Shown here: piece after piece, positions 1 to 63,855 of the stretch
How positions within the stretch are numbered: the stretch's first letter is position 1
Layout of the letters: each line of letters begins with the position of its first letter
Position numbers and translations under genes: made by a program
Sequence record: PV204681
Strand: one strand, 5' to 3'
DNA length: 64,000 nucleotides
Source: Escherichia phage vB_EcoM_JQD51
The notes under the pieces: model-generated
Databases searched by the model: none
Told to the model about the DNA's origin: nothing
What the model saw: the letters and a program-made list of their open reading frames with translations, nothing else

Positions 1-452
1 ACCCATGAGAAAATACCAGAAAGATACTTAATCGTGAATGGGTCTAATACTTCAGTTGCTAATGGAAGTCCCATACGTAGAAGTTTACGACACAATGTTC
101 GTGCAACTATAAGACCGTGGTTCATATCAAAACTTCCGTCAAGATATGGATCATTTACAAGACCTTTCCAACCTACGGTAGTTCGAGGCTTTTCAAAATA
201 AACGCGCATCACTAACAAAACATTAGGAAGACGAGTTTGAAGTTCAGCCAGACGTTTGCCGTATTCAACAGCAGCAATAGGGTCATGAATTGAGCAAGGA
301 CCTACAACAATAAGTTTGCGTGGGTCTTCACCGTTCATAATCGAATTAACTTGTTCGCGATGAGAAGCCACTTGTGATGCGTAAGCTTCCGACAAAGGAA
401 TAATCTCAGCCAGTTCTTTTGGAGAAATAAGTTTTCTGATGACAGGTAACAT
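1..452 (-). CDS. Class I DAHP synthase (AroG-like), N-terminal ~150 codons; gene continues beyond window start
   Basis: Hand translation of minus strand from ATG at 450-452 (SD TAAGGA upstream): MLPVIRKLISPKELAEIIPL...LIVVGPCSIHDPIAAVEYGKRLAELQ...VMRVYFEKPRTTVGWKGLVNDPYLDGSF. The GPCSIHD and KPRTTVGWKGL motifs are DAHP synthase hallmarks. Not in ORF track because it has no stop in window. Confidence 0.75.
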   Translation of the reverse strand, partial: MLPVIRKLISPKELAEIIPLSEAYASQVASHREQVNSIMNGEDPRKLIVVGPCSIHDPIAAVEYGKRLAELQTRLPNVLLVMRVYFEKPRTTVGWKGLVNDPYLDGSFDMNHGLIVARTLCRKLLRMGLPLATEVLDPFTIKYLSGIFSW

Positions 453-572: not shown

Positions 573-809
573 TTATAGTGTTCCATATACTCGAGTTGCT
601 TCAACAAGACCATCACTGCCTAATTTAAGATTAGTAATTTGGTCACCATCTTTAGGATTAACGATTATGAGAAAAGAACGTGGAGATTCTTGAATAACTC
701 GTAATGTTGCATCTTTGAAACGTTCAGACACTTTATTGATGAGTGCTTGAGCAAATTCTTTTACTTTAATCTGAAATTCGTGTACTGTAATTGGGTTTTC
801 ACTTAGCAT
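573..809 (-). CDS. hypothetical protein (78 aa)
   Basis: ORF track; ATG with GAGGAAA SD; early promoter upstream. Confidence 0.5.
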   Translation of the reverse strand: MLSENPITVHEFQIKVKEFAQALINKVSERFKDATLRVIQESPRSFLIIVNPKDGDQITNLKLGSDGLVEATRVYGTL

Positions 810-837
810 TTCTATTTCCTCATTTGTTGGTAGAGTT

Positions 838-867
838 ATAGTATCACAACTCCACCATGTTGTAAAC
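838..867 (-). promoter_or_regulatory. early promoter (GTTTAC -35 / TACTAT -10)
   Basis: Plus strand atagta -N18- gtaaac; upstream of ORF 573..809. Confidence 0.45.
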
Positions 868-869
868 CA

Positions 870-1145
870 TTAAATTGCTTTGCATTCAATTTTTTGTGTA
901 CCGAAATTGATATCACATTGGATAACTAAATCGCCGTCAAGATCAAATACCACTATGACGTGTGCAGACCCAGGGAGAAGAGTAATAGCAATAGAATCTA
1001 CTTGGTCTGGGAGCAAAGCATTGAGTACATGAGTTAGTTGAGCATGAACTCTGAGTTCGGCTGCATTATCAAGCACTTCAAACATATTATTAGCAATAAT
1101 CTGACTGAAGACTACCTTTACAATTTCAGAATAAGTTGGGAACAT
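870..1145 (-). CDS. hypothetical protein (91 aa)
   Basis: ORF track; GAGG SD 5 nt upstream. Confidence 0.5.
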   Translation of the reverse strand: MFPTYSEIVKVVFSQIIANNMFEVLDNAAELRVHAQLTHVLNALLPDQVDSIAITLLPGSAHVIVVFDLDGDLVIQCDINFGTQKIECKAI

Positions 1146-1152
1146 AATTACC

Positions 1153-1377
1153 TCAGTGTACAGTATTTACTTTAACTCGAACAACAAATCGCTCGGTCGG
1201 TTCACCTACAGGAACAAACTCTACATGATATTCACCTTTGTAACGAGTATTCAGATCATTACGAATTCCTGCGAGTTTGTTGATTAATGTAGGACTCATA
1301 TTAAGTCCCACTAGTTTACGAAGCATTTTGTATGCTTCATCTTCGATTTCATGATGTTTATCGTACATAGTTTTCAT
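1153..1377 (-). CDS. hypothetical protein (74 aa)
   Basis: ORF track; no clear SD; start uncertain. Confidence 0.4.
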   Translation of the reverse strand: MKTMYDKHHEIEDEAYKMLRKLVGLNMSPTLINKLAGIRNDLNTRYKGEYHVEFVPVGEPTERFVVRVKVNTVH

Positions 1378-1548
1378 TTAACCATTCAATTGCCTGGTCG
1401 ACGTTATCAAATATACCGCCGTCCAACCATTCTTCATGTTCATAGTCCAGCACATCAATACCGAACCGTCCATTTACTAAAGGCCATACTACAAACAAAT
1501 ATTCTTTATGCTGTTCGATGGCCTCAATCACTTCATATAATCGTTTCA

Positions 1549-1549
<1 letters not shown>
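1358..1549 (-). CDS. hypothetical protein (63 aa)
   Basis: ORF track; start overlaps pseT stop (TAATG coupling). Confidence 0.45.
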
Positions 1550-2635
<1,086 letters not shown>

Positions 2636-2963: not shown

Positions 2964-2993
2964 ATTATACTCTGCTCCTGAGAGTTTGTAAAC
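2964..2993 (-). promoter_or_regulatory. early promoter (GTTTAC / TATAAT) within inverted repeat
   Basis: Plus strand attata -N18- gtaaac; -10 sits in IR ggagca...tgctcc; upstream of ORF 2636..2935. Confidence 0.45.
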
Positions 2994-57307: not shown

Positions 57308-57856
57308 TTAACGAGCCCATTTGATAATTTCTGTAATCAAATAATTACGTTCGCTTGCATTAAATCCTATAACTTTGTTAGCACCGTCATGATTAAGTAA
57401 TTGATACGTTTGGATTTTGTTATGAATTGCAAACTCTTCAAAATATGAAATGACTGTATTAAAACCGAATGAAGACAAAGTAATAAGATCGTCTTCAAAA
57501 CTTTCAGTCATTTCGTTACGTGTTAAAATAATTGTGAACACATCATGGTTTTGGCAAAGACGAACATAATCCTGTTCATAAACGTCAAGAACCGAGTCCG
57601 CATCTTGTCGAATACGTCCATAAACCCAGTTACTAATATATCCACGGTCTAACAGATAAATCTTAGTAGGGTCTAAATAATTCAACATCGTTTCGAAACA
57701 GCCAACTTCATTTCGAGACTTAACATCGAAACGTCCATCAACTGTTCGTTTAGGGAAATCAATCTTTACATATCTTTCACTAATTTCCATTATGTCATTA
57801 ATGAAAGTTGTTTTACCAGCATTATCCGGGCCATCTACTAAAATAATTTTAGCCAT
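57308..57856 (-). CDS. P-loop kinase, thymidylate-kinase-like
   Basis: 182 aa; Walker A GPDNAGKTT; DR(G/Y) motif LLDRGYISNWVYG as in TMPK/dNMP kinases; coupled to upstream gene; sits in the T4 beta-gt slot. Confidence 0.6.
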   Translation of the reverse strand: MAKIILVDGPDNAGKTTFINDIMEISERYVKIDFPKRTVDGRFDVKSRNEVGCFETMLNYLDPTKIYLLDRGYISNWVYGRIRQDADSVLDVYEQDYVRLCQNHDVFTIILTRNEMTESFEDDLITLSSFGFNTVISYFEEFAIHNKIQTYQLLNHDGANKVIGFNASERNYLITEIIKWAR

Positions 57857-57857
57857 T

Positions 57858-58757
57858 TTATTCCTCGATTACGACATCTTCATATTTAGGTATATTATAC
57901 GGCGAAGAAATTAAAGCATTAAAGTAGATGAACTCACCAAGACCTGGATGGAATACTTCTTCAGGATTTTCGAAATATTGAATCTTCGGACGTCCTTTAA
58001 GAATTTGATAGTACTCAGTTTTAGTTGGTTTAAAAATTCGAATCAGCGCTTCTTCAGGATACTTATTTCTGTCGAAGCTATTATTTGGATCGGTTATATA
58101 AAGCGGTTGGCCTAATTGAATTGCACATTCAACCACTTGTTCAAAACGATAGCACGGGTCACTAATTCGAAATGGATGAAAAATACCATCTAGATGAATA
58201 GGAGCCAAATCACCTACAAGACGCTGCATGATGGAAGGACGTATAACTTTCTGGGTTACGATAATCTTATTACCATCGGCACCAGCGTTAACCAGCACTT
58301 CCTTTTGACGTTTATTCAACACAGTAGTTTGAAGTGAACGATTAACCGACAACATATCGGTTTTTAAGAATTCGTCAATATAAAAACGTGGTTTATTAGG
58401 GTCTGCAGTGATATTGAAATTGAATTCCACATCAAAAGCGCCGTCATATCCAGTGATATCTGTGATTAGAAAATCACAATCATAATAATCAATTAATGAA
58501 TCAACCACAAATTCATTTTCAGACCAGAAATATTTACGAGTGTTATATGCGTTATCTTTATACCATAATGGAACAAACTTAAATTCTGGGAAAAGACGTT
58601 CACATTCTTTAATATCAGATGCATTACGTGGATATGTAATCACATCACCCGGATTAGCACGGTGCAAATGAAGTTGGAAGTTGCCATCCTTAAGGATAGC
58701 ATACTGTCCAGTTTCATAAGACCGCATACTCAAGATAGGTACGCGGAAAATAGCCAT
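57858..58757 (-). CDS. hypothetical protein (299 aa), candidate DNA-modification enzyme
   Basis: ORF track; TAATG coupling with gene 42; contains a DCD (DxD-like) motif; family not recognised. Confidence 0.5.
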   Translation of the reverse strand: MAIFRVPILSMRSYETGQYAILKDGNFQLHLHRANPGDVITYPRNASDIKECERLFPEFKFVPLWYKDNAYNTRKYFWSENEFVVDSLIDYYDCDFLITDITGYDGAFDVEFNFNITADPNKPRFYIDEFLKTDMLSVNRSLQTTVLNKRQKEVLVNAGADGNKIIVTQKVIRPSIMQRLVGDLAPIHLDGIFHPFRISDPCYRFEQVVECAIQLGQPLYITDPNNSFDRNKYPEEALIRIFKPTKTEYYQILKGRPKIQYFENPEEVFHPGLGEFIYFNALISSPYNIPKYEDVVIEE

Positions 58758-59473
58758 TAGTCAAGGAATCCTTTAACATAATCAAAATCACGTTCAAACA
58801 CATGGGCACTTACCATGGTATGAGTATAATCACCAACTTCTACACCACATTCGTTAGCGATATAATGAAGTAATTTTCCTTGGAGATAAAAATCCAACTG
58901 CATAACAACAGCACAGTTCTGAGAACGCATATGACAGTGGGTATAAAGCTTACCATCACGAATATAATAAGTCACTGAGTCAGTACATGGATATTCAAGC
59001 GTTTCGTCTGAATCAAGCAAAGCCTGATCAGAACTTTCTAGAATTTGGAACACAACTCTTCGAGAGTTAGGCTTCTCTTTAAGTTCTTTTAGAAGAGCTG
59101 GTAATTGGGCCACAATGCGAGGACCATAGAAAGTGTTGAAGTTCGCCGGCAAAACATCTGATTTTGGTTTAGAAATAAATTTAGCGACATTAGGATATGC
59201 CTTAAACGCTTCTTCTGCGTTGGTACCACCAGAAATCATAAACTTCCAGAAGTCTTCGGCATATTCATAAGAGATGCGGTTAATACGTGGGTCAGTCATT
59301 TTGAATGATGACGGAGTGTCAACAACTACTGTCATAGACCCAATTTCATTACAACGTCCAATACGAGAATCAGTTACGAATTCCGGGTTTTCTAAAATTT
59401 CACGATTGACTGCTTTAAATGCGGTTTGAAAATCTGCGGCTTTGATATATTTCATTGTGTTATGTTTTCCCAT
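58757..59473 (-). CDS. 42: dCMP hydroxymethylase (thymidylate synthase family)
   Basis: 238 aa; catalytic-Cys motif YPCTDSVTYYIRD aligns with T4 gp42 FMCTNTVQYLIRD; Asp in the specificity position (QLD, cf. T4 RND) implies cytosine substrate; GAGGT SD. Confidence 0.8.
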   Translation of the reverse strand: MGKHNTMKYIKAADFQTAFKAVNREILENPEFVTDSRIGRCNEIGSMTVVVDTPSSFKMTDPRINRISYEYAEDFWKFMISGGTNAEEAFKAYPNVAKFISKPKSDVLPANFNTFYGPRIVAQLPALLKELKEKPNSRRVVFQILESSDQALLDSDETLEYPCTDSVTYYIRDGKLYTHCHMRSQNCAVVMQLDFYLQGKLLHYIANECGVEVGDYTHTMVSAHVFERDFDYVKGFLD

Positions 59474-59654
59474 GTTTACCTCAATACAATTTATTATATA
59501 CTCAATTCGTAAAGCTTATTTGAATTTCTTGACAATGTTGATATAACGTAAAGCTTCAGCATCGATACTTCCAAGAACACTATGAAGAAATGCATCAGCG
59601 TAGTATTCCAATTAAACAGGTTCTTTAATCACTTTAGCCGCTTTAGTTTCAAAC

Positions 59655-59675
59655 AGGCCCATCAGGGCCTTTTTA
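59655..59675 (+). other. hairpin plus T-run on plus strand between gene 42 and the U32 gene
   Basis: aggccc-atca-gggcct then tttt. Confidence 0.3.
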
Positions 59676-59751
59676 AGAATTTGTTCGATGCTGTTAATTT
59701 TCATAGTCAAAATCTCTTCGTTAAGTTGGTGGTTAAAAGTTTTTCTAGAAA

Positions 59752-60912
59752 TCATTCTGGGTACCTCAAAGCGTCGTCAGAGTTAGTTATATCAATAATA
59801 GATATAGAATTTTCTGATAACCCATTTTTAGATAACTGACGTTTATAATATCTTTCACAATATGTACACGTCGTCCCGCAGATTTCATTAGCACAATCGA
59901 AATCTGGATGTTTGAACCACCTTTTTTCTAAAAAGCCATCTAACAAAGAGGTTTCAATATTTACCGTATGTGAAAACTCGGTCTCATTTTCAAGAGTGAA
60001 AATGGTCTCTAAAGGCTTCCACAATTCCAACAAATTACCTTCAAACTTTTCAGAAGCATAAGCTTCAAGAACTTTCAAAATGTAGTCTGTGCTACCTGTA
60101 CGTCCTGAAACTTTGAATTGAGTGATACCAATATCATTATAAAGTTTCAAATCTTGAGGACGAACAAAACGAGTTCTCAACCAGTTAAATGGGTCTGTAT
60201 CACGAGCTTTAATACAGTGCTGCATTGGATACCCATTTAAGGATTTGGCATCATCTACTGTAACATCGGTGCTATGGAAAATATAGCAAGAGTCACGATA
60301 ACTACAATGTGTTGTATACCCTTTACCAGCATTAGAACAGAACTCATTTACAAGAACTTCAAATATTATATTGTTCTTATTACAAAACTCTGCTGCACGC
60401 TTCAGGAAAGAAACTGAACGGTTCTTATGAATTCCGCAGCAGACCTTTTTGATATTATATTGGTCATGCAAGTATTTGATTTGAGTTACAGCATCGACAT
60501 GTAGAATTGTTGAAACTTCAATCTCAATGTCTTTATTGACTTCACGAACAATTTCCATAACAACAGGGTTAGCGATAGTAATACGCCATACGCCTATTGA
60601 CCAAAGATACTGAACATAATCCTGAATAGCTTTCTTCTTCCACTCAACTAGTTCTCTTTTTGAACCAGGATTTATCGTGTTGAGTGTATAGTTAAAGCAA
60701 ATACCTAATTCGTTACAACGTTTAACGTAATCTTCTAACATCTTTTTGTCAACGTCAGGAAGCCTAAAATCAGGTCTGGCTGCTACAAAAGCCATTTCTC
60801 TGGTAGAGCCGTATACTTCGTTTATCAAGCTATTAGGATAAGTTTTATTGAGCTCTACGATTTTATCAAGAAGAGCTAAATCAAAATTCGTTCCGATTTT
60901 AAAGGTATTCAT
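59752..60912 (-). CDS. peptidase U32 family protein (prephenate-dependent hydroxylase family)
   Basis: 386 aa; blocks ANPVVMEIVRE, EIEVSTILHV, Cys-rich EVLVNEFCSNAGKGYTTHCSYRDSC and FKVSGRTGS align with remembered U32 proteins (YegQ/RlhA: DPGLIMLVRE, EIFVHGALCMAYSGRC, LKIEGRTKS). Confidence 0.6.
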   Translation of the reverse strand: MNTFKIGTNFDLALLDKIVELNKTYPNSLINEVYGSTREMAFVAARPDFRLPDVDKKMLEDYVKRCNELGICFNYTLNTINPGSKRELVEWKKKAIQDYVQYLWSIGVWRITIANPVVMEIVREVNKDIEIEVSTILHVDAVTQIKYLHDQYNIKKVCCGIHKNRSVSFLKRAAEFCNKNNIIFEVLVNEFCSNAGKGYTTHCSYRDSCYIFHSTDVTVDDAKSLNGYPMQHCIKARDTDPFNWLRTRFVRPQDLKLYNDIGITQFKVSGRTGSTDYILKVLEAYASEKFEGNLLELWKPLETIFTLENETEFSHTVNIETSLLDGFLEKRWFKHPDFDCANEICGTTCTYCERYYKRQLSKNGLSENSISIIDITNSDDALRYPE

Positions 60913-60966: not shown

Positions 60967-61368
60967 TTATAGATTCGGTTTATATGATTTAAATGTTTCG
61001 AATTCGCCTTTATTCATAAGAGCTTTGAATTCGTCAGGACGCATAGCTTTGTCGTCGATAATCCAATCATATACTGGTTTATGTGTTAGCAAATTATGGT
61101 ACTTCAATCCAATGTTTGCCAAGTTCTGAATCAGACTTGGGAGAATGTCAATTGCTATACGACCAGGACCGACTGACTTCATACCGCGAGCAGTGTAAAG
61201 CGTTATTGTATGCCCTGCATCATATAGGGCATTAATGGCAGACACCATTTCGACGTCTGGTTTGAAGTTCACGTAATCACGATTGTTATTCCATTCCGTG
61301 ATGCAATCATCGACATCAAAACAAAGATTAAGCATGTTTTTTACACGGTGCATTAGATTCGTTCCCAT
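60967..61368 (-). CDS. HAD-superfamily phosphatase (small)
   Basis: 133 aa; motif I FDVDDCIT (DxDx[T/V]), motif II LYTARG, motif III/IV K...IIDDKA; start may be the ATG at 61353 (TAATG overlap). Confidence 0.6.
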   Translation of the reverse strand: MGTNLMHRVKNMLNLCFDVDDCITEWNNNRDYVNFKPDVEMVSAINALYDAGHTITLYTARGMKSVGPGRIAIDILPSLIQNLANIGLKYHNLLTHKPVYDWIIDDKAMRPDEFKALMNKGEFETFKSYKPNL

Positions 61369-63038
61369 TGATGAGTGATATCGCCACCGATTGGACGATA
61401 AGAAACACCAGTTTCTTTATCAGTTAGTACCCATTTACCAGGATTTTTTGTAATCAGAGTAGCCGTTACAGGTTCTGCTACATCATAACTAATAGAGCCG
61501 TCTTGAAGTACACGGCCCATATTACGTAATTGCTTAGTCAGAAGTTCCATACCTTTATAATATGCGGCTACCGCTTTAAGTGGATTATTCTTGAAATAAC
61601 CACCTAATGCAATCCAGATAATTGCTACAGCCAAATGATGATACTCATTAAACGAACTCATCTTTCCATATTTGTAAACTAATGGATTGATGTTAATAGT
61701 CACATTACAAGTTGTTTCATCAATAGTAAACTGTCCCCAGGTCGGATTAGCATTGAATTCATCATAACCTGAAACAGCATAAAGCACTTTAGCTTCATCA
61801 TACAATTTTGGCCCGTAAATCTTGGTTTCACCAAAATATCCACGAGGGTCGATAAACTTGACTTCACCATTATCAGTAATCATAGTATTACTGAAGTTTG
61901 GGTCACCATGAATAACAGAGTACTGTCCCTGAGAACGGTTATGATAACGAATAAGGTGTTCTAAAGCTTGTTTCAGCATTGGCTTCAGACGCCCAATCTT
62001 AGTGTAGTTCACATGTGTGATTTTACCAAATGAATCAATCAATGGTTGAATACTTTCACAACGATCAATAACTTTAGTATAGAATTCTTTAGTGAAATCA
62101 CGACGAACAGTTTCAGGACTTACAAAATAAGTGTCTGTGCTGAATTTCAGTGCATCTAAAATTGCATCAACAATTTGTGGACGAGCAAGACTTGATTTGG
62201 ATTTAATATATTCAAATGCCGGCTTACCTTTAATGCGTTCCATTTCAAAGTTATTTTCATTAACAGAAACTAGCTGAGGAACTGAATCTGATTTCACTTT
62301 AAGATACCATGAAATCTCATCTTTCTGAAGAGCTCGGCCCTGTTCGGTTAATGCGAATTTAGTTACAGTTTCTTCACCAATTTCAACTGCATTAAAACTA
62401 CGATTAAGTTCACGAACTTCATGAGCTTTTTCAAGTTTAGGCATATCACCTAAATCAATTAGATTCATAAGCTCTGATTTATTGAATGCGCTGCCGTAAA
62501 GGAATTCTACGAAATCACGTCCTTTGCAGTATTCATGAATTTCCTCATCAGTAGAACCCATATAGAATTCCCAGTCTTTGAACTGATAAATTCCTACAAC
62601 ATTACCACCTGTTGAACCTACGTTAGTGATATTTTCACCGTCGAAATTATATCGACATTCGTCGCCCTTAACATAGATTGCGTTAACATTCCAAGACCAT
62701 GAACCAAAATCAGGAATAATATCACACCAGTTAACAATTACATTATGGCCGTCTAAATCTTTGTGCAATTTAGCAAGAGCATAAGCAGAACCATATGCTT
62801 CATCAACTGTACGAATAGTCACATTGAACCCTTCTTGCTCACAATAAGCTCGAACGGTTTCAGCAAATTTTGAATGAACTACTACAATAATTTCATCTGC
62901 GCCAAGGTCAGAATAAATTGTATACAAATTGCTCAGAATAGTGTCTTGTTTATAGTTAACAAGCACCTTAGGAATATGATGTGTTATTGGATACAAACGA
63001 GTTGCCAGTCCAGCACCGAGAATAACAGCTTTTTTCAT
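61353..63038 (-). CDS. bifunctional sugar-1-phosphate nucleotidyltransferase / APH-like anomeric sugar kinase
   Basis: 561 aa; N-terminal KKAVILGAGLATRLYPITHHIPKVLV (RmlA/GalU-type G-x-G-T-R-L-x-P-x-T); C-terminal HGDPNFSN...KFIDPRGYFG (HxDxxxxN catalytic loop and D of Mg site as in ChoK/APH/AmgK); GAGGACC SD. Confidence 0.8.
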   Translation of the reverse strand: MKKAVILGAGLATRLYPITHHIPKVLVNYKQDTILSNLYTIYSDLGADEIIVVVHSKFAETVRAYCEQEGFNVTIRTVDEAYGSAYALAKLHKDLDGHNVIVNWCDIIPDFGSWSWNVNAIYVKGDECRYNFDGENITNVGSTGGNVVGIYQFKDWEFYMGSTDEEIHEYCKGRDFVEFLYGSAFNKSELMNLIDLGDMPKLEKAHEVRELNRSFNAVEIGEETVTKFALTEQGRALQKDEISWYLKVKSDSVPQLVSVNENNFEMERIKGKPAFEYIKSKSSLARPQIVDAILDALKFSTDTYFVSPETVRRDFTKEFYTKVIDRCESIQPLIDSFGKITHVNYTKIGRLKPMLKQALEHLIRYHNRSQGQYSVIHGDPNFSNTMITDNGEVKFIDPRGYFGETKIYGPKLYDEAKVLYAVSGYDEFNANPTWGQFTIDETTCNVTININPLVYKYGKMSSFNEYHHLAVAIIWIALGGYFKNNPLKAVAAYYKGMELLTKQLRNMGRVLQDGSISYDVAEPVTATLITKNPGKWVLTDKETGVSYRPIGGDITHQWERI

Positions 63039-63079: not shown

Positions 63080-63223
63080 CTAGTTAAAGCATTCATACTT
63101 TGCTTGTAGTCCAATCATAATCCATCCAATTACAAGTGTTGGAATCATTACTGGAGCCGTTAAGCTCCAGTAGATAGTCATGACAAGCATCAATAGTAAA
63201 AGTCCTATTGTTATTGCTTTCAT
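63080..63223 (-). CDS. small hydrophobic peptide (47 aa)
   Basis: Hand-read: MKAITIGLLLLMLVMTIYWSLTAPVMIPTLVIGWIMIGLQAKYECFN; ATGA overlap with the isomerase stop. Confidence 0.3.
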   Translation of the reverse strand: MKAITIGLLLLMLVMTIYWSLTAPVMIPTLVIGWIMIGLQAKYECFN

Positions 63224-63855
63224 TGTTCGCCTCGTAACATGGCACCTAGTGCGCCGCCAGGGTGGAACTTAAGGAAGTCATTAGAGGTAAATCCACGCTC
63301 AGACGAAAGGTTGATAGCAAACGTATCGATAAGCGCTAACAACAATGTAGTGGACATAGTCGGAGCCAGAGAATTCTCATCAACCTCTACTGCGATGCCT
63401 GTACAGAAAGAGTAATCAAAAAGGGCTTCATTTTCTTGTGGAATGTCTGGGTTACAATGCAACAGAATCTGTTTGACGTTCGGACGAATCATTTTAAGAT
63501 GCTTAGCCACGCCTATCATTTCTTCAGTTTTACCAGAACGACTAATATGAATCAACACATCATTAGGCGCAATGAATCCTGCATCACCGTGAGAATAATG
63601 CCCAGTGTTCAAGTACATACTCGGGATACCGAGTGAAGCAAATGTCTCAGAAGCTTTAGTTGCAATATTAGCATTCTTACCAACACCTGTAATAATTACT
63701 CGGCTTTCATAATTACTAAGTCCCGGACGTCGAAGAGTTTCTAGAATAGCATTATAACGAGCAGGGTTTTGACTAATTACTTTGGCCATATCGGCCAAAG
63801 AAGAAGATTGTTTTATGATTGCGTTAATAGCGATAGTAATAGGAGTAGTTTTCAT
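63220..63855 (-). CDS. SIS-domain sugar-phosphate isomerase, KdsD/KpsF-type arabinose-5-phosphate isomerase (no CBS domains)
   Basis: 211 aa; TGVGKNANIATKASETFASLGIPSMYLNTGHYSHGDAGFIAPNDVLIHISRSGKTEE aligns with the KdsD SIS core (GxGKSGxIGxKxAATFASTG...HGDLG...SxSGE). Confidence 0.8.
   Translation of the reverse strand: MKTTPITIAINAIIKQSSSLADMAKVISQNPARYNAILETLRRPGLSNYESRVIITGVGKNANIATKASETFASLGIPSMYLNTGHYSHGDAGFIAPNDVLIHISRSGKTEEMIGVAKHLKMIRPNVKQILLHCNPDIPQENEALFDYSFCTGIAVEVDENSLAPTMSTTLLLALIDTFAINLSSERGFTSNDFLKFHPGGALGAMLRGEQ

Follow-up and report, generated by a model that had tools for sequence, protein, structure and literature searches.

The window analysed here, i.e., the whole stretch of 64,000 nucleotides of Escherichia phage vB_EcoM_JQD51 (PV204681), opens on its minus strand with an ORF that we predict from its sequence to encode the N-terminal part of a working, metal-dependent type I-alpha DAHP synthase (DAHPS; PEP + erythrose-4-phosphate -> DAHP). 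Three observations on the phage-type enzyme are new here: it combines intact catalytic residues with an altered inhibitor pocket; it occupies a shared locus in six genera, under purifying selection and with no near cellular donor; and it was found only in lineages carrying a U32-family protein, whose gene lies in a cluster for the modification of 5-hydroxycytosine (5hoC) DNA. We favour, with a fair degree of confidence, the reading that this DAHPS is functional, insensitive to feedback and boosts prephenate for an O2-independent hydroxylation of cytosine C5 by the U32 protein.

A DAHP synthase gene at the window edge

The features at this end of the window are as follows.

1 to 452, minus strand: type I-alpha DAHP synthase, first 150 codons (PF00793, TIGR00034), the same as residues 1-150 of the protein of Escherichia phage F2
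458 to 462, minus strand: Shine-Dalgarno AAGGA, 5 nt upstream of the DAHPS ATG by sequence reading
1549 to 2448, minus strand: pseT, within an uninterrupted run of minus-strand ORFs that ends in DAHPS and cd
2964 to 2992, minus strand: sigma-70-like promoter match TTTACA-17-TATAAT (11/12), heading the ORF run with pseT, DAHPS and cd

Translation of positions 3-452 gave 150 stop-free residues from an ATG at 450-452, and the frame continues past the window start. The earlier note had recognized a DAHPS N-terminus in this edge ORF, and this was borne out, since both VVGPCSIHD and EKPRTTVGWKGL were found and the profile matches are strong. Indeed, the 150-residue fragment alone matched Pfam DAHP_synth_1 (PF00793, E=1.2e-32) and NCBIfam TIGR00034 aroFGH (189 bits versus a cutoff of 173, precisely 173.2), and this match of motifs and profiles to DAHPS is far beyond chance. 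An in-frame TGA at 483-485 precedes the ATG by 11 codons, with no ATG, GTG or TTG in between; the short N-terminus is therefore real, and a longer one beginning at an upstream start is ruled out. Note that the match at 2964-2992 is a candidate early promoter, promoter-like sites overall being not above shuffled expectation.

Over its 452 bases, the window fragment shows two changes, both synonymous, relative to phage F2 (99.9% identical), in which the DAHPS gene is intact and encodes 330 aa. None of the defects considered by the earlier note (truncation, frameshift or lost catalytic residues) occurs in this near-identical full-length gene. More widely, a truncated or degenerate DAHPS is ruled out, as F2 and 212/212 tblastn-positive records (coverage of at least 80% each) have an intact gene, which evolves under purifying selection (dN/dS 0.16-0.21). 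The full-length protein of F2 scored 428.5 bits with TIGR00034 (cutoff 173.2) and 455.9 with PRK12755 (cutoff 343), its closest solved structure is E. coli AroF (6agm, E=4e-105), and its identity amounts to 51% with AroF, 47% with AroG and 44% with AroH. The previous designation as AroG-type holds in the broad class I sense (type I-alpha, AroF/G/H-like) but not as the AroG isozyme, since the AroG equivalog model NF006723 was failed (364.5 bits, under the cutoff of 568) and AroF is slightly nearer; the AroH equivalog NF009396 also stayed under its cutoff (386.7 bits versus 463). The exclusion of a KDO8P synthase proved correct, given that the aroFGH cutoff was passed, all ligands are conserved and no KdsA-type model matched the phage protein (NCBIfam gave DAHPS models only), which contains the KPRTT motif.

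A DAHPS in a phage is not new in itself, since more than 100 GenBank phage records annotate one. The order pseT...DAHPS...cd recurs in six Straboviridae genera (Mosig-, Kanagawa-, Marfa-, Winkler-, Braga- and Kagamiyamavirus). The remark that T4 has no such gene near pseT fits RB69, whose annotation, mapped gene by gene on T4, reads cd-cd.2-cd.3-ORF227-cd.4-pseT with no DAHPS. A recent capture from the host is ruled out because the closest cellular homologues, from many phyla among the 5.8 billion proteins searched, are 50-55% identical. The phage clade is as distant from AroF/G/H as these isozymes are from each other, and so forms a fourth, phage-specific branch beside them.

Active site and inhibitor pocket

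The residues C61, H268, E302 and D326, together with the PEP and E4P-phosphate ligands R92, K97, R99, T100, R165, K186 and R234 (all in AroG numbering), are invariant across the six phage genera. The metal ligands (C53, H260, E289 and D311 in phage numbering) were kept in 123/124 aligned homologues, the exception being a partial sequence; C53 is the only one of them to fall inside the window, as does the KPRTT motif at residues 88-92.

The inhibitor pocket is rebuilt. AroG P150, Q151 and S180 are replaced by I, K and P, respectively, without exception across the phage clade. In addition, 8-10 residues are missing from the N-terminus, which lacks the region of AroG D6/D7 and AroF N8. Among the best 120 clusters from the 5.8 billion proteins, the combination of an I-K-P-type pocket and a short N-terminus was found only in 26 clusters at least 56% identical to the phage enzyme (24 with I-K-P, two with I-R-P or P-K-P), whereas the cluster representatives below 56% identity retain P/V/G-Q-S/T in 94/94 cases. 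In AroG, P150L and S180F abolish feedback inhibition, and Q151 and S180 touch the inhibitor (PMC9529685). From the confinement of this signature to the phage clade, we infer an enzyme that would be insensitive to Phe, Tyr and Trp, although a pocket so strictly conserved as I-K-P could instead bind another effector.

The U32 cluster, chorismate mutase and their distribution

The U32 ORF, placed by the earlier note about 59 kb from the DAHPS gene, is present within a cluster for arabinosyl-5-hydroxycytosine (arabinosyl-5hoC), as listed below.

57308 to 57856, minus strand: kinase-like protein, RB69 gp45-like, arabinosyl-5hoC cluster
57858 to 58757, minus strand: DNA arabinosyltransferase, RB69 gp46:47-like, arabinosyl-5hoC cluster
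58757 to 59473, minus strand: thymidylate-synthase (ThyA) homologue, 98.7% identical to RB69 gp48
59516 to 59755, minus strand: gp49 homologue (79 aa in RB69) with a nonsense change at codon 48 (CAA->TAA at 59612-59614)
59752 to 60912, minus strand: U32-family protein (Pfam PF01136, E=6e-11), proposed prephenate consumer, 98.5% identical to RB69 gp50
60967 to 61368, minus strand: HAD phosphatase, AfhF/gp51-like, UDP-arabinose branch
61353 to 63038, minus strand: bifunctional nucleotidyltransferase/kinase, AfhE/gp52:53-like, UDP-arabinose branch
63220 to 63855, minus strand: SIS arabinose-5-phosphate isomerase, gp55-like, UDP-arabinose branch

The RB69 counterpart of the ThyA homologue, gp48, was experimentally shown to be a flavin/O2-dependent 5-hydroxy-dCMP synthase that alone makes 5hodCMP with O2 (PMC13326640). 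The U32 ORF carries a Peptidase_U32 domain (PF01136, E=6.3e-11, 42 bits versus a cutoff of 22) and is at least 82% identical across all 221 phage records, and the phage family is very divergent (19 bits with the UbiU model, no solved relative by sequence). In low-identity alignments, C192, C203 and C209 align with 3/4 Fe-S cysteines of UbiU/TrhP/RlhA, and the second canonical Fe-S cysteine is Gly or Tyr in all phage U32 sequences; extra conserved cysteines are C233 and those of a C-terminal CX4CX3CX2C. No tRNA genes were found in the window, and a TrhP-like action of U32 on phage tRNA is not supported, given this absence and the fact that U32 tracks the DNA-modification cluster.

Other genera carry an AroQ chorismate mutase in the slot that the gp49 homologue takes in the window, between U32 and the ThyA homologue. 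Indeed, such a mutase (Pfam CM_2, E=2e-10) adjoins U32 in 51 related phage records, and in 5/6 loci inspected, the rearranged Thanatos cluster included, the start of the mutase gene and the stop of U32 overlap, so that the two genes are probably translationally coupled in these phages. The slot of the window gave no Pfam match to AroQ chorismate mutase (PF01817, CM_2). A hidden mutase is ruled out there, as the 47-aa ORF after U32 is gp49 with its nonsense codon; with an HMM of the phage mutases, the window scored 5 bits and RB69 gp49 0 bits, and hhalign gave a probability of 0.1.

Among GenBank phages, 212 records contain DAHPS and 221 contain U32, with nearly the same host distributions; the comparison draws on total counts, on a sample of rows and on the names of IMG/VR contigs. 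Among the genome-length IMG/VR contigs with phage-type DAHPS, 8/8 also have U32. Phage-type DAHPS was found only in U32-carrying lineages, which suggests that it is nested within the U32-carrying phages. Since U32 occurs without DAHPS in RB69, in Yersinia phage TG1 and probably also in Pectobacterium phage PM2, the latter enzyme would be a booster at most. Note also that co-distribution within one virus family, with genes 59 kb apart, could result from shared ancestry and not from function.

This distribution bears on the possibility, also raised by the earlier note, that DAHPS is a general auxiliary gene, which sustains Phe, Tyr and Trp for phage protein after host shut-off and is unconnected to U32 or DNA modification. 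We consider this unlikely, even if PHROGs classes the DAHPS family as 'moron, auxiliary metabolic gene and host takeover', the gene lies far from the modification cluster, DAHPS-less U32-positive phages exist and many unrelated viral contigs of IMG/VR (giant-virus MAGs and others) hold cell-type DAHPS (at most 52% identity). Amino-acid supply would leave unexplained both the restriction to U32 Straboviridae, when no phage-type DAHPS was seen in the far commoner T4/T2/T6-like phages of the same hosts, and the U32-coupled chorismate mutase of the sister genera. In addition, rich media already contain amino acids, and a feedback-insensitive DAHPS would therefore be of little use for this supply.

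The flux could also be destined for another chorismate product (p-aminobenzoate/folate, quinones or enterobactin) in place of prephenate. T4-type phages rely on folate-requiring enzymes, td and frd are located in the same genome region, and DAHPS lifts every chorismate-derived pool, prephenate among them. However, the sole extra shikimate-branch enzyme encoded by these phages is chorismate mutase, which diverts chorismate that would otherwise serve pABA, quinones and siderophores, and their cytosine-modifying enzyme has switched from folate to flavin; such a destination thus seems improbable to us.

Finally, a changed aldose substrate has to be weighed, e.g., condensation of PEP with arabinose-5-phosphate (A5P) by chemistry resembling that of KDO8P synthase, or removal of E4P that steers the pentose-phosphate pool, with a role in the arabinose branch. 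DAHPS and KDO8PS share their fold and family (PF00793), the phage isomerase makes A5P, and E. coli DAHPS accepts A5P, if poorly. Against this, the PEP and E4P-phosphate ligands are unchanged (KPRTT included), the aroFGH equivalog model was passed with no KdsA-type match, and consumption of A5P would counter UDP-arabinose synthesis. Moreover, DAHPS follows U32 and not the isomerase: the Acinetobacter phages have arabinosyl-5hoC and, in 57 records, the arabinose isomerase, yet none of these records showed U32 or phage-type DAHPS, and Marfavirus is the reverse, with DAHPS present beside U32 and chorismate mutase and the arabinose isomerase absent. A tie of DAHPS to the arabinose branch is ruled out by this distribution, and a changed substrate as a whole appears highly improbable.

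Proposed prephenate supply and comparison with known systems

Altogether, the nesting of DAHPS in U32 phages, the coupling of the mutase to U32 and the rebuilt inhibitor pocket make the link suggested by the earlier note, from DAHPS through prephenate to U32, more plausible, with evidence that is circumstantial. The DAHPS gene is part of the pre-replicative block of nucleotide-metabolism genes (pseT ... DAHPS-cd). Since the catalytic residues are intact, the inhibitor pocket rebuilt and the N-terminal lid missing, a sustained shikimate flux is expected, and the enzyme may keep carbon flowing while host AroF/G/H are feedback-inhibited, e.g., under rich or gut conditions. DAHP would be carried to chorismate by host AroB-AroC, and chorismate to prephenate by host PheA/TyrA in JQD51 or by their own AroQ enzyme in many sister genera. 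The likeliest consumer of prephenate would be the phage U32 Fe-S protein of the arabinosyl-5-hydroxycytosine cluster, which, by analogy with RlhA, TrhP and UbiU/V, may hydroxylate cytosine C5 without O2, with prephenate as oxygen donor, and might back up the neighbouring O2/flavin-dependent 5-hydroxy-dCMP synthase. We infer in particular that prephenate is the purpose of this flux and cytosine the substrate of U32. To our knowledge, hydroxylase activity of a U32 protein still awaits reconstitution in vitro. Prephenate is the O donor of U32 enzymes, and RlhA requires it for 5-hydroxycytidine (PMC10990095, PMC5727448). A phage genome holds about 63,000 cytosines, which, with a burst of 100-200, would amount to a demand of ~10^7 hydroxylations per cell.

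RB69-like phages reportedly, according to two papers of 2026, swap cytosine for arabinosylated 5-hydroxycytosine, with the hydroxyl taken from O2 by a flavin-dependent thymidylate-synthase homologue. This raises the questions of how ~63,000 cytosines per genome could be modified in the anoxic gut, and of the role of the extremely conserved U32 of the cluster. DAHPS, the U32-coupled mutase of the sister genera and the absence of DAHPS, mutase and U32 alike from phages of strictly aerobic Acinetobacter would together offer a concrete answer to both. The full claim, in which a deregulated DAHPS (with AroQ in the sister genera) provides a virus-encoded prephenate route to a U32 that makes 5-hydroxycytosine in DNA without O2, is more tentative, and we hold it with slightly less than even confidence. 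If true, a virus would for the first time be seen to use prephenate as oxygen donor and to rewire the shikimate pathway in the service of nucleic-acid chemistry, and prephenate-dependent hydroxylation, known for RNA and quinones, would reach DNA as well. Such a route would also add DNA hypermodification to the cases of paired aerobic and anaerobic enzymes, next to TrhO/TrhP, UbiIHF/UbiUV and the NrdAB/NrdDG of the phage itself, and would account for DNA modification in anoxic hosts by gut phages whose 5hodCMP synthases depend on O2. In practice, a naturally feedback-resistant DAHPS would possibly be useful in metabolic engineering, and, for phage therapy, Mosigvirus-type DNA modification, hence restriction evasion, may hinge on oxygen and host aromatic metabolism. 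We found no published link of phage DAHPS, chorismate mutase, U32 or prephenate to these phages, prior publication being possible; the phiC120 genome note lists DAHPS and U32 domains (PMC8022965).

Compared to E. coli AroF (Tyr-sensitive), AroG (Phe-sensitive) and AroH (Trp-sensitive), the phage DAHPS has the same fold, family, metal and PEP/E4P residues and a similar length, but differs by the N-terminus shortened by 8-10 residues, by P150I, Q151K, S180P and P182C/T/A, and by two short deletions in the C-terminal third. The same positions are changed in feedback-resistant AroG/AroF alleles (AroG P150L, S180F, D146N and Q151 variants; PMC9529685). Unlike these laboratory alleles, the phage changes are natural, fixed, clade-wide and accompanied by N-terminal truncation, with I/K/P instead of L/-/F, and their effect on regulation is predicted.

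The window cluster is 95-99% identical to RB69 gp45-gp55 and in this resembles the Afh arabinosyl-5-hydroxycytosine cluster of RB69, HY126 and DLP3; HY126 also belongs to the nearest relatives of the window. There, gp50, the U32 homologue, was tentatively labelled 'sugar or heterocycle reductase', with no mention of DAHPS, chorismate mutase or prephenate (PMC13326640). The carboxymethylcytosine pathway of Synechococcus phage S-B43 (CmoA/CmoX) consumes prephenate, and its authors ask about prephenate availability (PMC12783734). As in the route proposed here, prephenate is spent on phage DNA hypermodification, but in S-B43 it goes to Cx-SAM synthesis and not to hydroxylation, and a phage-encoded shikimate enzyme was not reported there (PMC12783734).

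The U32 systems of E. coli comprise RlhA (ho5C2501 of 23S rRNA), TrhP (ho5U34 of tRNA) and UbiU/UbiV (anaerobic ubiquinone), in which U32 Fe-S proteins need prephenate for C5 or ring hydroxylation; in TrhP/TrhO and UbiU/UbiV/UbiI/H/F, the U32 protein has an O2-dependent partner that makes the same product (PMC5727448, PMC6599085, PMC10990095). In a parallel to those pairs, the phage U32 gene lies one small ORF from the gene of an O2/flavin-dependent cytosine-5 hydroxylase. Unlike in the E. coli systems, the putative substrate of the phage U32 is DNA or a DNA precursor, and the putative supply enzymes (DAHPS and chorismate mutase) are encoded by the virus itself.

Identity and inhibitor site of the phage enzyme

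The minus-strand ORF running off the window start, which the earlier note had read as an AroG-type DAHP synthase (DAHPS), is a real phage DAHP synthase. Indeed, it begins with an ATG at 452, preceded 5 nt upstream by a Shine-Dalgarno AAGGA, and continues for 150 sense codons; its N-terminus is fixed by an in-frame TGA 11 codons upstream, no other start codon lying in between. The translated fragment contains both motifs quoted in that note, matches Pfam DAHP_synth_1 (E=1.2e-32) and, at less than half a protein, scores 189 bits on the NCBIfam aroFGH equivalog (curated cutoff 173). Over its first 3 kb, the window shares 98–99% identity with more than 100 further T4-like coliphages of the RB69/JS09/HX01 type and 99.9% with Escherichia phage F2, in which the gene is intact, neither truncated nor frameshifted (993 nt, 330 aa), its stop overlapping the start of cd, the dCMP deaminase gene. 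Over the fragment, the two phages differ by two synonymous bases and the first 150 residues are identical. A nearly identical phage, HY126, has reportedly been characterised by He et al. (Nat Chem Biol 2026). The gene's existence is known by annotation, since GenBank names it phospho-2-dehydro-3-deoxyheptonate aldolase, AroF, AroG or DAHP synthase and PHROGs holds it as family 5045; in the searchable literature, we found phage DAHPS mentioned only in a single line that lists domains of phage phiC120 (PMC8022965).

The full-length F2 protein reaches 428 bits on TIGR00034 (cutoff 173), and among solved structures E. coli AroF comes closest to it (6agm, E=4e-105), ahead of the Neisseria enzyme and AroG. 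It is 44–51% identical to each of AroF, AroG and AroH, which share 47–57% among themselves, and it falls below both the AroG- and AroH-specific equivalog cutoffs, so that the aroFGH family assignment stood but the AroG-specific label did not. No KDO8P-synthase model matched it in the NCBIfam profile search, in line with the earlier argument against such an enzyme. When AroG, AroF and AroH were aligned with phage orthologues, including five further phage genera, all catalytic residues were kept, the metal ligands (C61/H268/E302/D326, AroG numbering) and the PEP/E4P ligands (R92, K97, R99, T100, R165, K186 and R234) being invariant.

In the same alignment, all six phage genera carry substitutions at the feedback-inhibitor contacts (P150 to I, Q151 to K, S180 to P, P182 to C/T/A), and the N-terminus is 8–10 residues shorter, removing the equivalents of AroG D6/D7 and AroF N8. 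Note that this altered site was absent from the earlier note. Among the best 120 clusters from a 5.8-billion-protein collection, the altered pocket and the short N-terminus were found in exactly the 26 that share 56% identity or more with the query; these have 48–52 residues before the catalytic Cys versus 58–95, and 24 of them read I-K-P (the two others I-R-P or P-K-P). The other 94 representatives (at most 55% identity) keep P/V/G-Q-S/T. Feedback resistance results from P150L or S180F in AroG, where Q151/S180 (Q152/S181 in AroF) bind to the main chain of the inhibitor (PMC9529685). Since the replaced positions confer resistance or bind the inhibitor in AroG/AroF, the phage enzyme is predicted to be insensitive to Phe, Tyr and Trp; a strictly conserved I-K-P pocket would also fit retuning to another ligand. 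Judged from its residues, the protein is a phage-specific type I-alpha variant whose active site is intact and whose inhibitor site is rebuilt.

Locus and age of the gene

In six groups (Mosigvirus-type phages, Kanagawavirus, Marfavirus, Winklervirus, Bragavirus and Kagamiyamavirus), the locus runs from pseT through two to five small ORFs to DAHPS, which is separated by zero to two ORFs from the dCMP deaminase gene. Between these genera, DAHPS shows 58–77% amino-acid identity with a dN/dS of 0.16–0.21. Because no cellular homologue above 55% identity was found in the 5.8-billion-protein collection, the gene was acquired long ago and has been inherited vertically since, and a recent origin from the host was ruled out.

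The small-ORF content between pseT and DAHPS varies among genera, the DAHPS position being constant; in the window, this interval (573–1549, minus strand) holds several small ORFs, including 63, 74, 91 and 78 aa, some of which correspond to T4 cd.3/cd.4 and RB69 ORF227c. One promoter candidate lies upstream:

2964–2992, minus strand: sigma-70-like promoter match (TTTACA-17-TATAAT, 11/12), heading an uninterrupted ORF run through pseT to DAHPS and cd

The total of sigma-70-like matches was not above shuffled expectation, and no terminator-like site was found downstream of this match on the minus strand. In addition, cell-type class I DAHP synthases, 38–52% identical to the phage enzyme, occur in IMG/VR (loci L034–L101) on many giant-virus MAG (GVMAG) contigs and megabase-sized viral genomes (e.g., L078, L086, L091, L093 and L097, on 1.8–2.5 Mb contigs), a separate occurrence of the enzyme in viruses.

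Co-distribution with the U32 protein and chorismate mutase

GenBank phage records with DAHPS (212) and with the U32-family protein (221; window 59752–60912, minus strand) show near-equal host breakdowns.

DAHPS/U32 phage records by host
Escherichia: 124/136
Klebsiella: 25/26
Shigella: 12/14
Proteus: 7/7
Serratia: 6/7
Enterobacter: 4/4
Edwardsiella: 3/3

Arabinose-5-phosphate isomerase is found in 275 records, including 57 Acinetobacter phages with no U32 match and no phage-type DAHPS, and it is absent from Marfavirus, which has both U32 and DAHPS. From these three observations, DAHPS tracks U32 and not the sugar branch; that the enzyme has switched to another aldose substrate and belongs to arabinose metabolism is therefore very improbable. 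The cluster of Klebsiella phage F48 (Marfavirus; locus L020, 39741–45408) contains an AfhE-like bifunctional enzyme, U32, chorismate mutase (CM), a thymidylate-synthase homologue and a glycosyltransferase. As no SIS arabinose-5-phosphate isomerase was found next to its DNA polymerase gene, it may use host KdsD/GutQ or another sugar.

The relation is nested, DAHPS occurring only where U32 is present and not the reverse, since RB69 (L011, 134251–135229; cd.2 directly adjoins cd) and Yersinia phage TG1 (L012, 128769–129864) carry U32 and lack DAHPS between cd and pseT; some U32-carrying lineages thus lost DAHPS or never gained it. IMG/VR has eight genome-length contigs that carry phage-type DAHPS (at least 58% identity), and every one of them is among the 15 phage-U32 contigs; the other seven lack DAHPS. 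The existence of U32 phages without DAHPS speaks against a U32 link. DAHPS as a general auxiliary gene for aromatic amino acids is conceivable but rather unlikely, the phage-type gene having been seen only in U32-carrying phages. Confined to one virus family, the co-distribution may partly reflect shared descent.

A second gene pair bears on the question. An AroQ CM (75–115 aa, Pfam CM_2 E=2.4e-10) adjoins U32 in 51 phage records covering at least 10 host genera; in most loci it lies upstream of the thymidylate-synthase homologue. The hosts are Klebsiella, Serratia, Yersinia, Enterobacter, Edwardsiella, Erwinia, Pectobacterium, Shewanella, Providencia and Morganella, and phage EcS1 also has the pair. 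Of six loci inspected, five have the CM start overlapping the U32 stop codon, TG1 (L015) being the exception, and the pair is still together in the rearranged cluster of Shewanella phage Thanatos-1. Most of these CM genes are annotated as hypothetical.

CM coordinates within the six inspected phage loci
L002: 7158–7397
L013: 2384–2728
L014: 2384–2728
L015: 2453–2746
L016: 5983–6240
L020: 8158–8403

The window cluster (57.3–63.9 kb) is 95–99% identical to RB69 gp45–gp55. RB69 DNA contains arabinosylated 5-hydroxycytosine; gp48, a thymidylate-synthase homologue, makes 5-hydroxy-dCMP with a flavin and O2, other cluster genes serve UDP-arabinose synthesis and transfer, and gp50 (U32) has a tentative label only, DAHPS, chorismate and prephenate being unmentioned (PMC13326640, 2026). 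Two window genes neighbour U32:

58757–59473, minus strand: thymidylate-synthase homologue, RB69 gp48 counterpart by homology
59516–59755, minus strand: RB69 gp49 homologue (79 aa in RB69, PHROG 8601), overlapping the U32 stop codon; a 47-aa ORF covers its first 47 codons

The gp49 homologue has TAA instead of CAA at codon 48 (59612–59614), the remainder being in frame, and sits in the slot held by CM in other genera. As a CM it was ruled out, showing no similarity by HMM and hhalign, and no recognisable CM was found by these methods at the slot beside U32 in the window phage, which also counts against a U32 link. That DAHPS supplies another chorismate product is improbable, given the U32-CM pair of the sister genera.

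Across all 221 records, U32 never falls below 82% identity, far above the conservation of DAHPS or the isomerase and well above that of its neighbours. Three of the four Fe-S cysteines match in a low-identity alignment to RlhA/TrhP/UbiU/V-type enzymes. Its C-terminal motif (residues 340–352), FDCANEICGTTCTYC (CX4CX3CX2C), ends in a radical-SAM-like CX3CX2C, is invariant in six genera and is missing from UbiU/UbiV/TrhP.

A proposed prephenate supply

The E. coli U32 proteins RlhA (5-hydroxycytidine in rRNA), TrhP and UbiU/V are prephenate-dependent, and under anoxia UbiU/V take their oxygen from prephenate (PMC5727448, PMC6599085, PMC10990095). By family assignment, we propose that phage DAHPS would condense PEP and E4P whatever the aromatic-amino-acid level, that host AroB–AroC would make chorismate, and that host PheA/TyrA, or phage CM in sister genera, would make prephenate; by gene context and analogy, U32 might then hydroxylate cytosine C5 with prephenate when O2 is lacking. 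Note that the O2-dependent synthase suffices aerobically (PMC13326640), a further weakness of the proposal, and that in vitro reconstitution of any U32 hydroxylase has not been achieved (PMC10990095). Backed by the distribution and the U32-CM pair, the best-supported explanation, raised as a possibility in the earlier note and placed here above all three others, is that DAHPS somewhat probably feeds U32.

A 169-kb genome with 37.5% G+C has about 63,000 cytosines, so that at a burst of 100–200 each cell would need roughly 10^7 hydroxylations, which we roughly estimate to be a considerable share of a cell's aromatic flux over one whole generation. Such a demand would explain the need for a deregulated entry enzyme in media in which host DAHPS is inhibited. 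The proposed pairing of synthase and U32 protein parallels the TrhO/TrhP and UbiIHF/UbiUV pairs, and the NrdAB/NrdDG pair of T4 is a further parallel to such O2-dependent and O2-independent partners.
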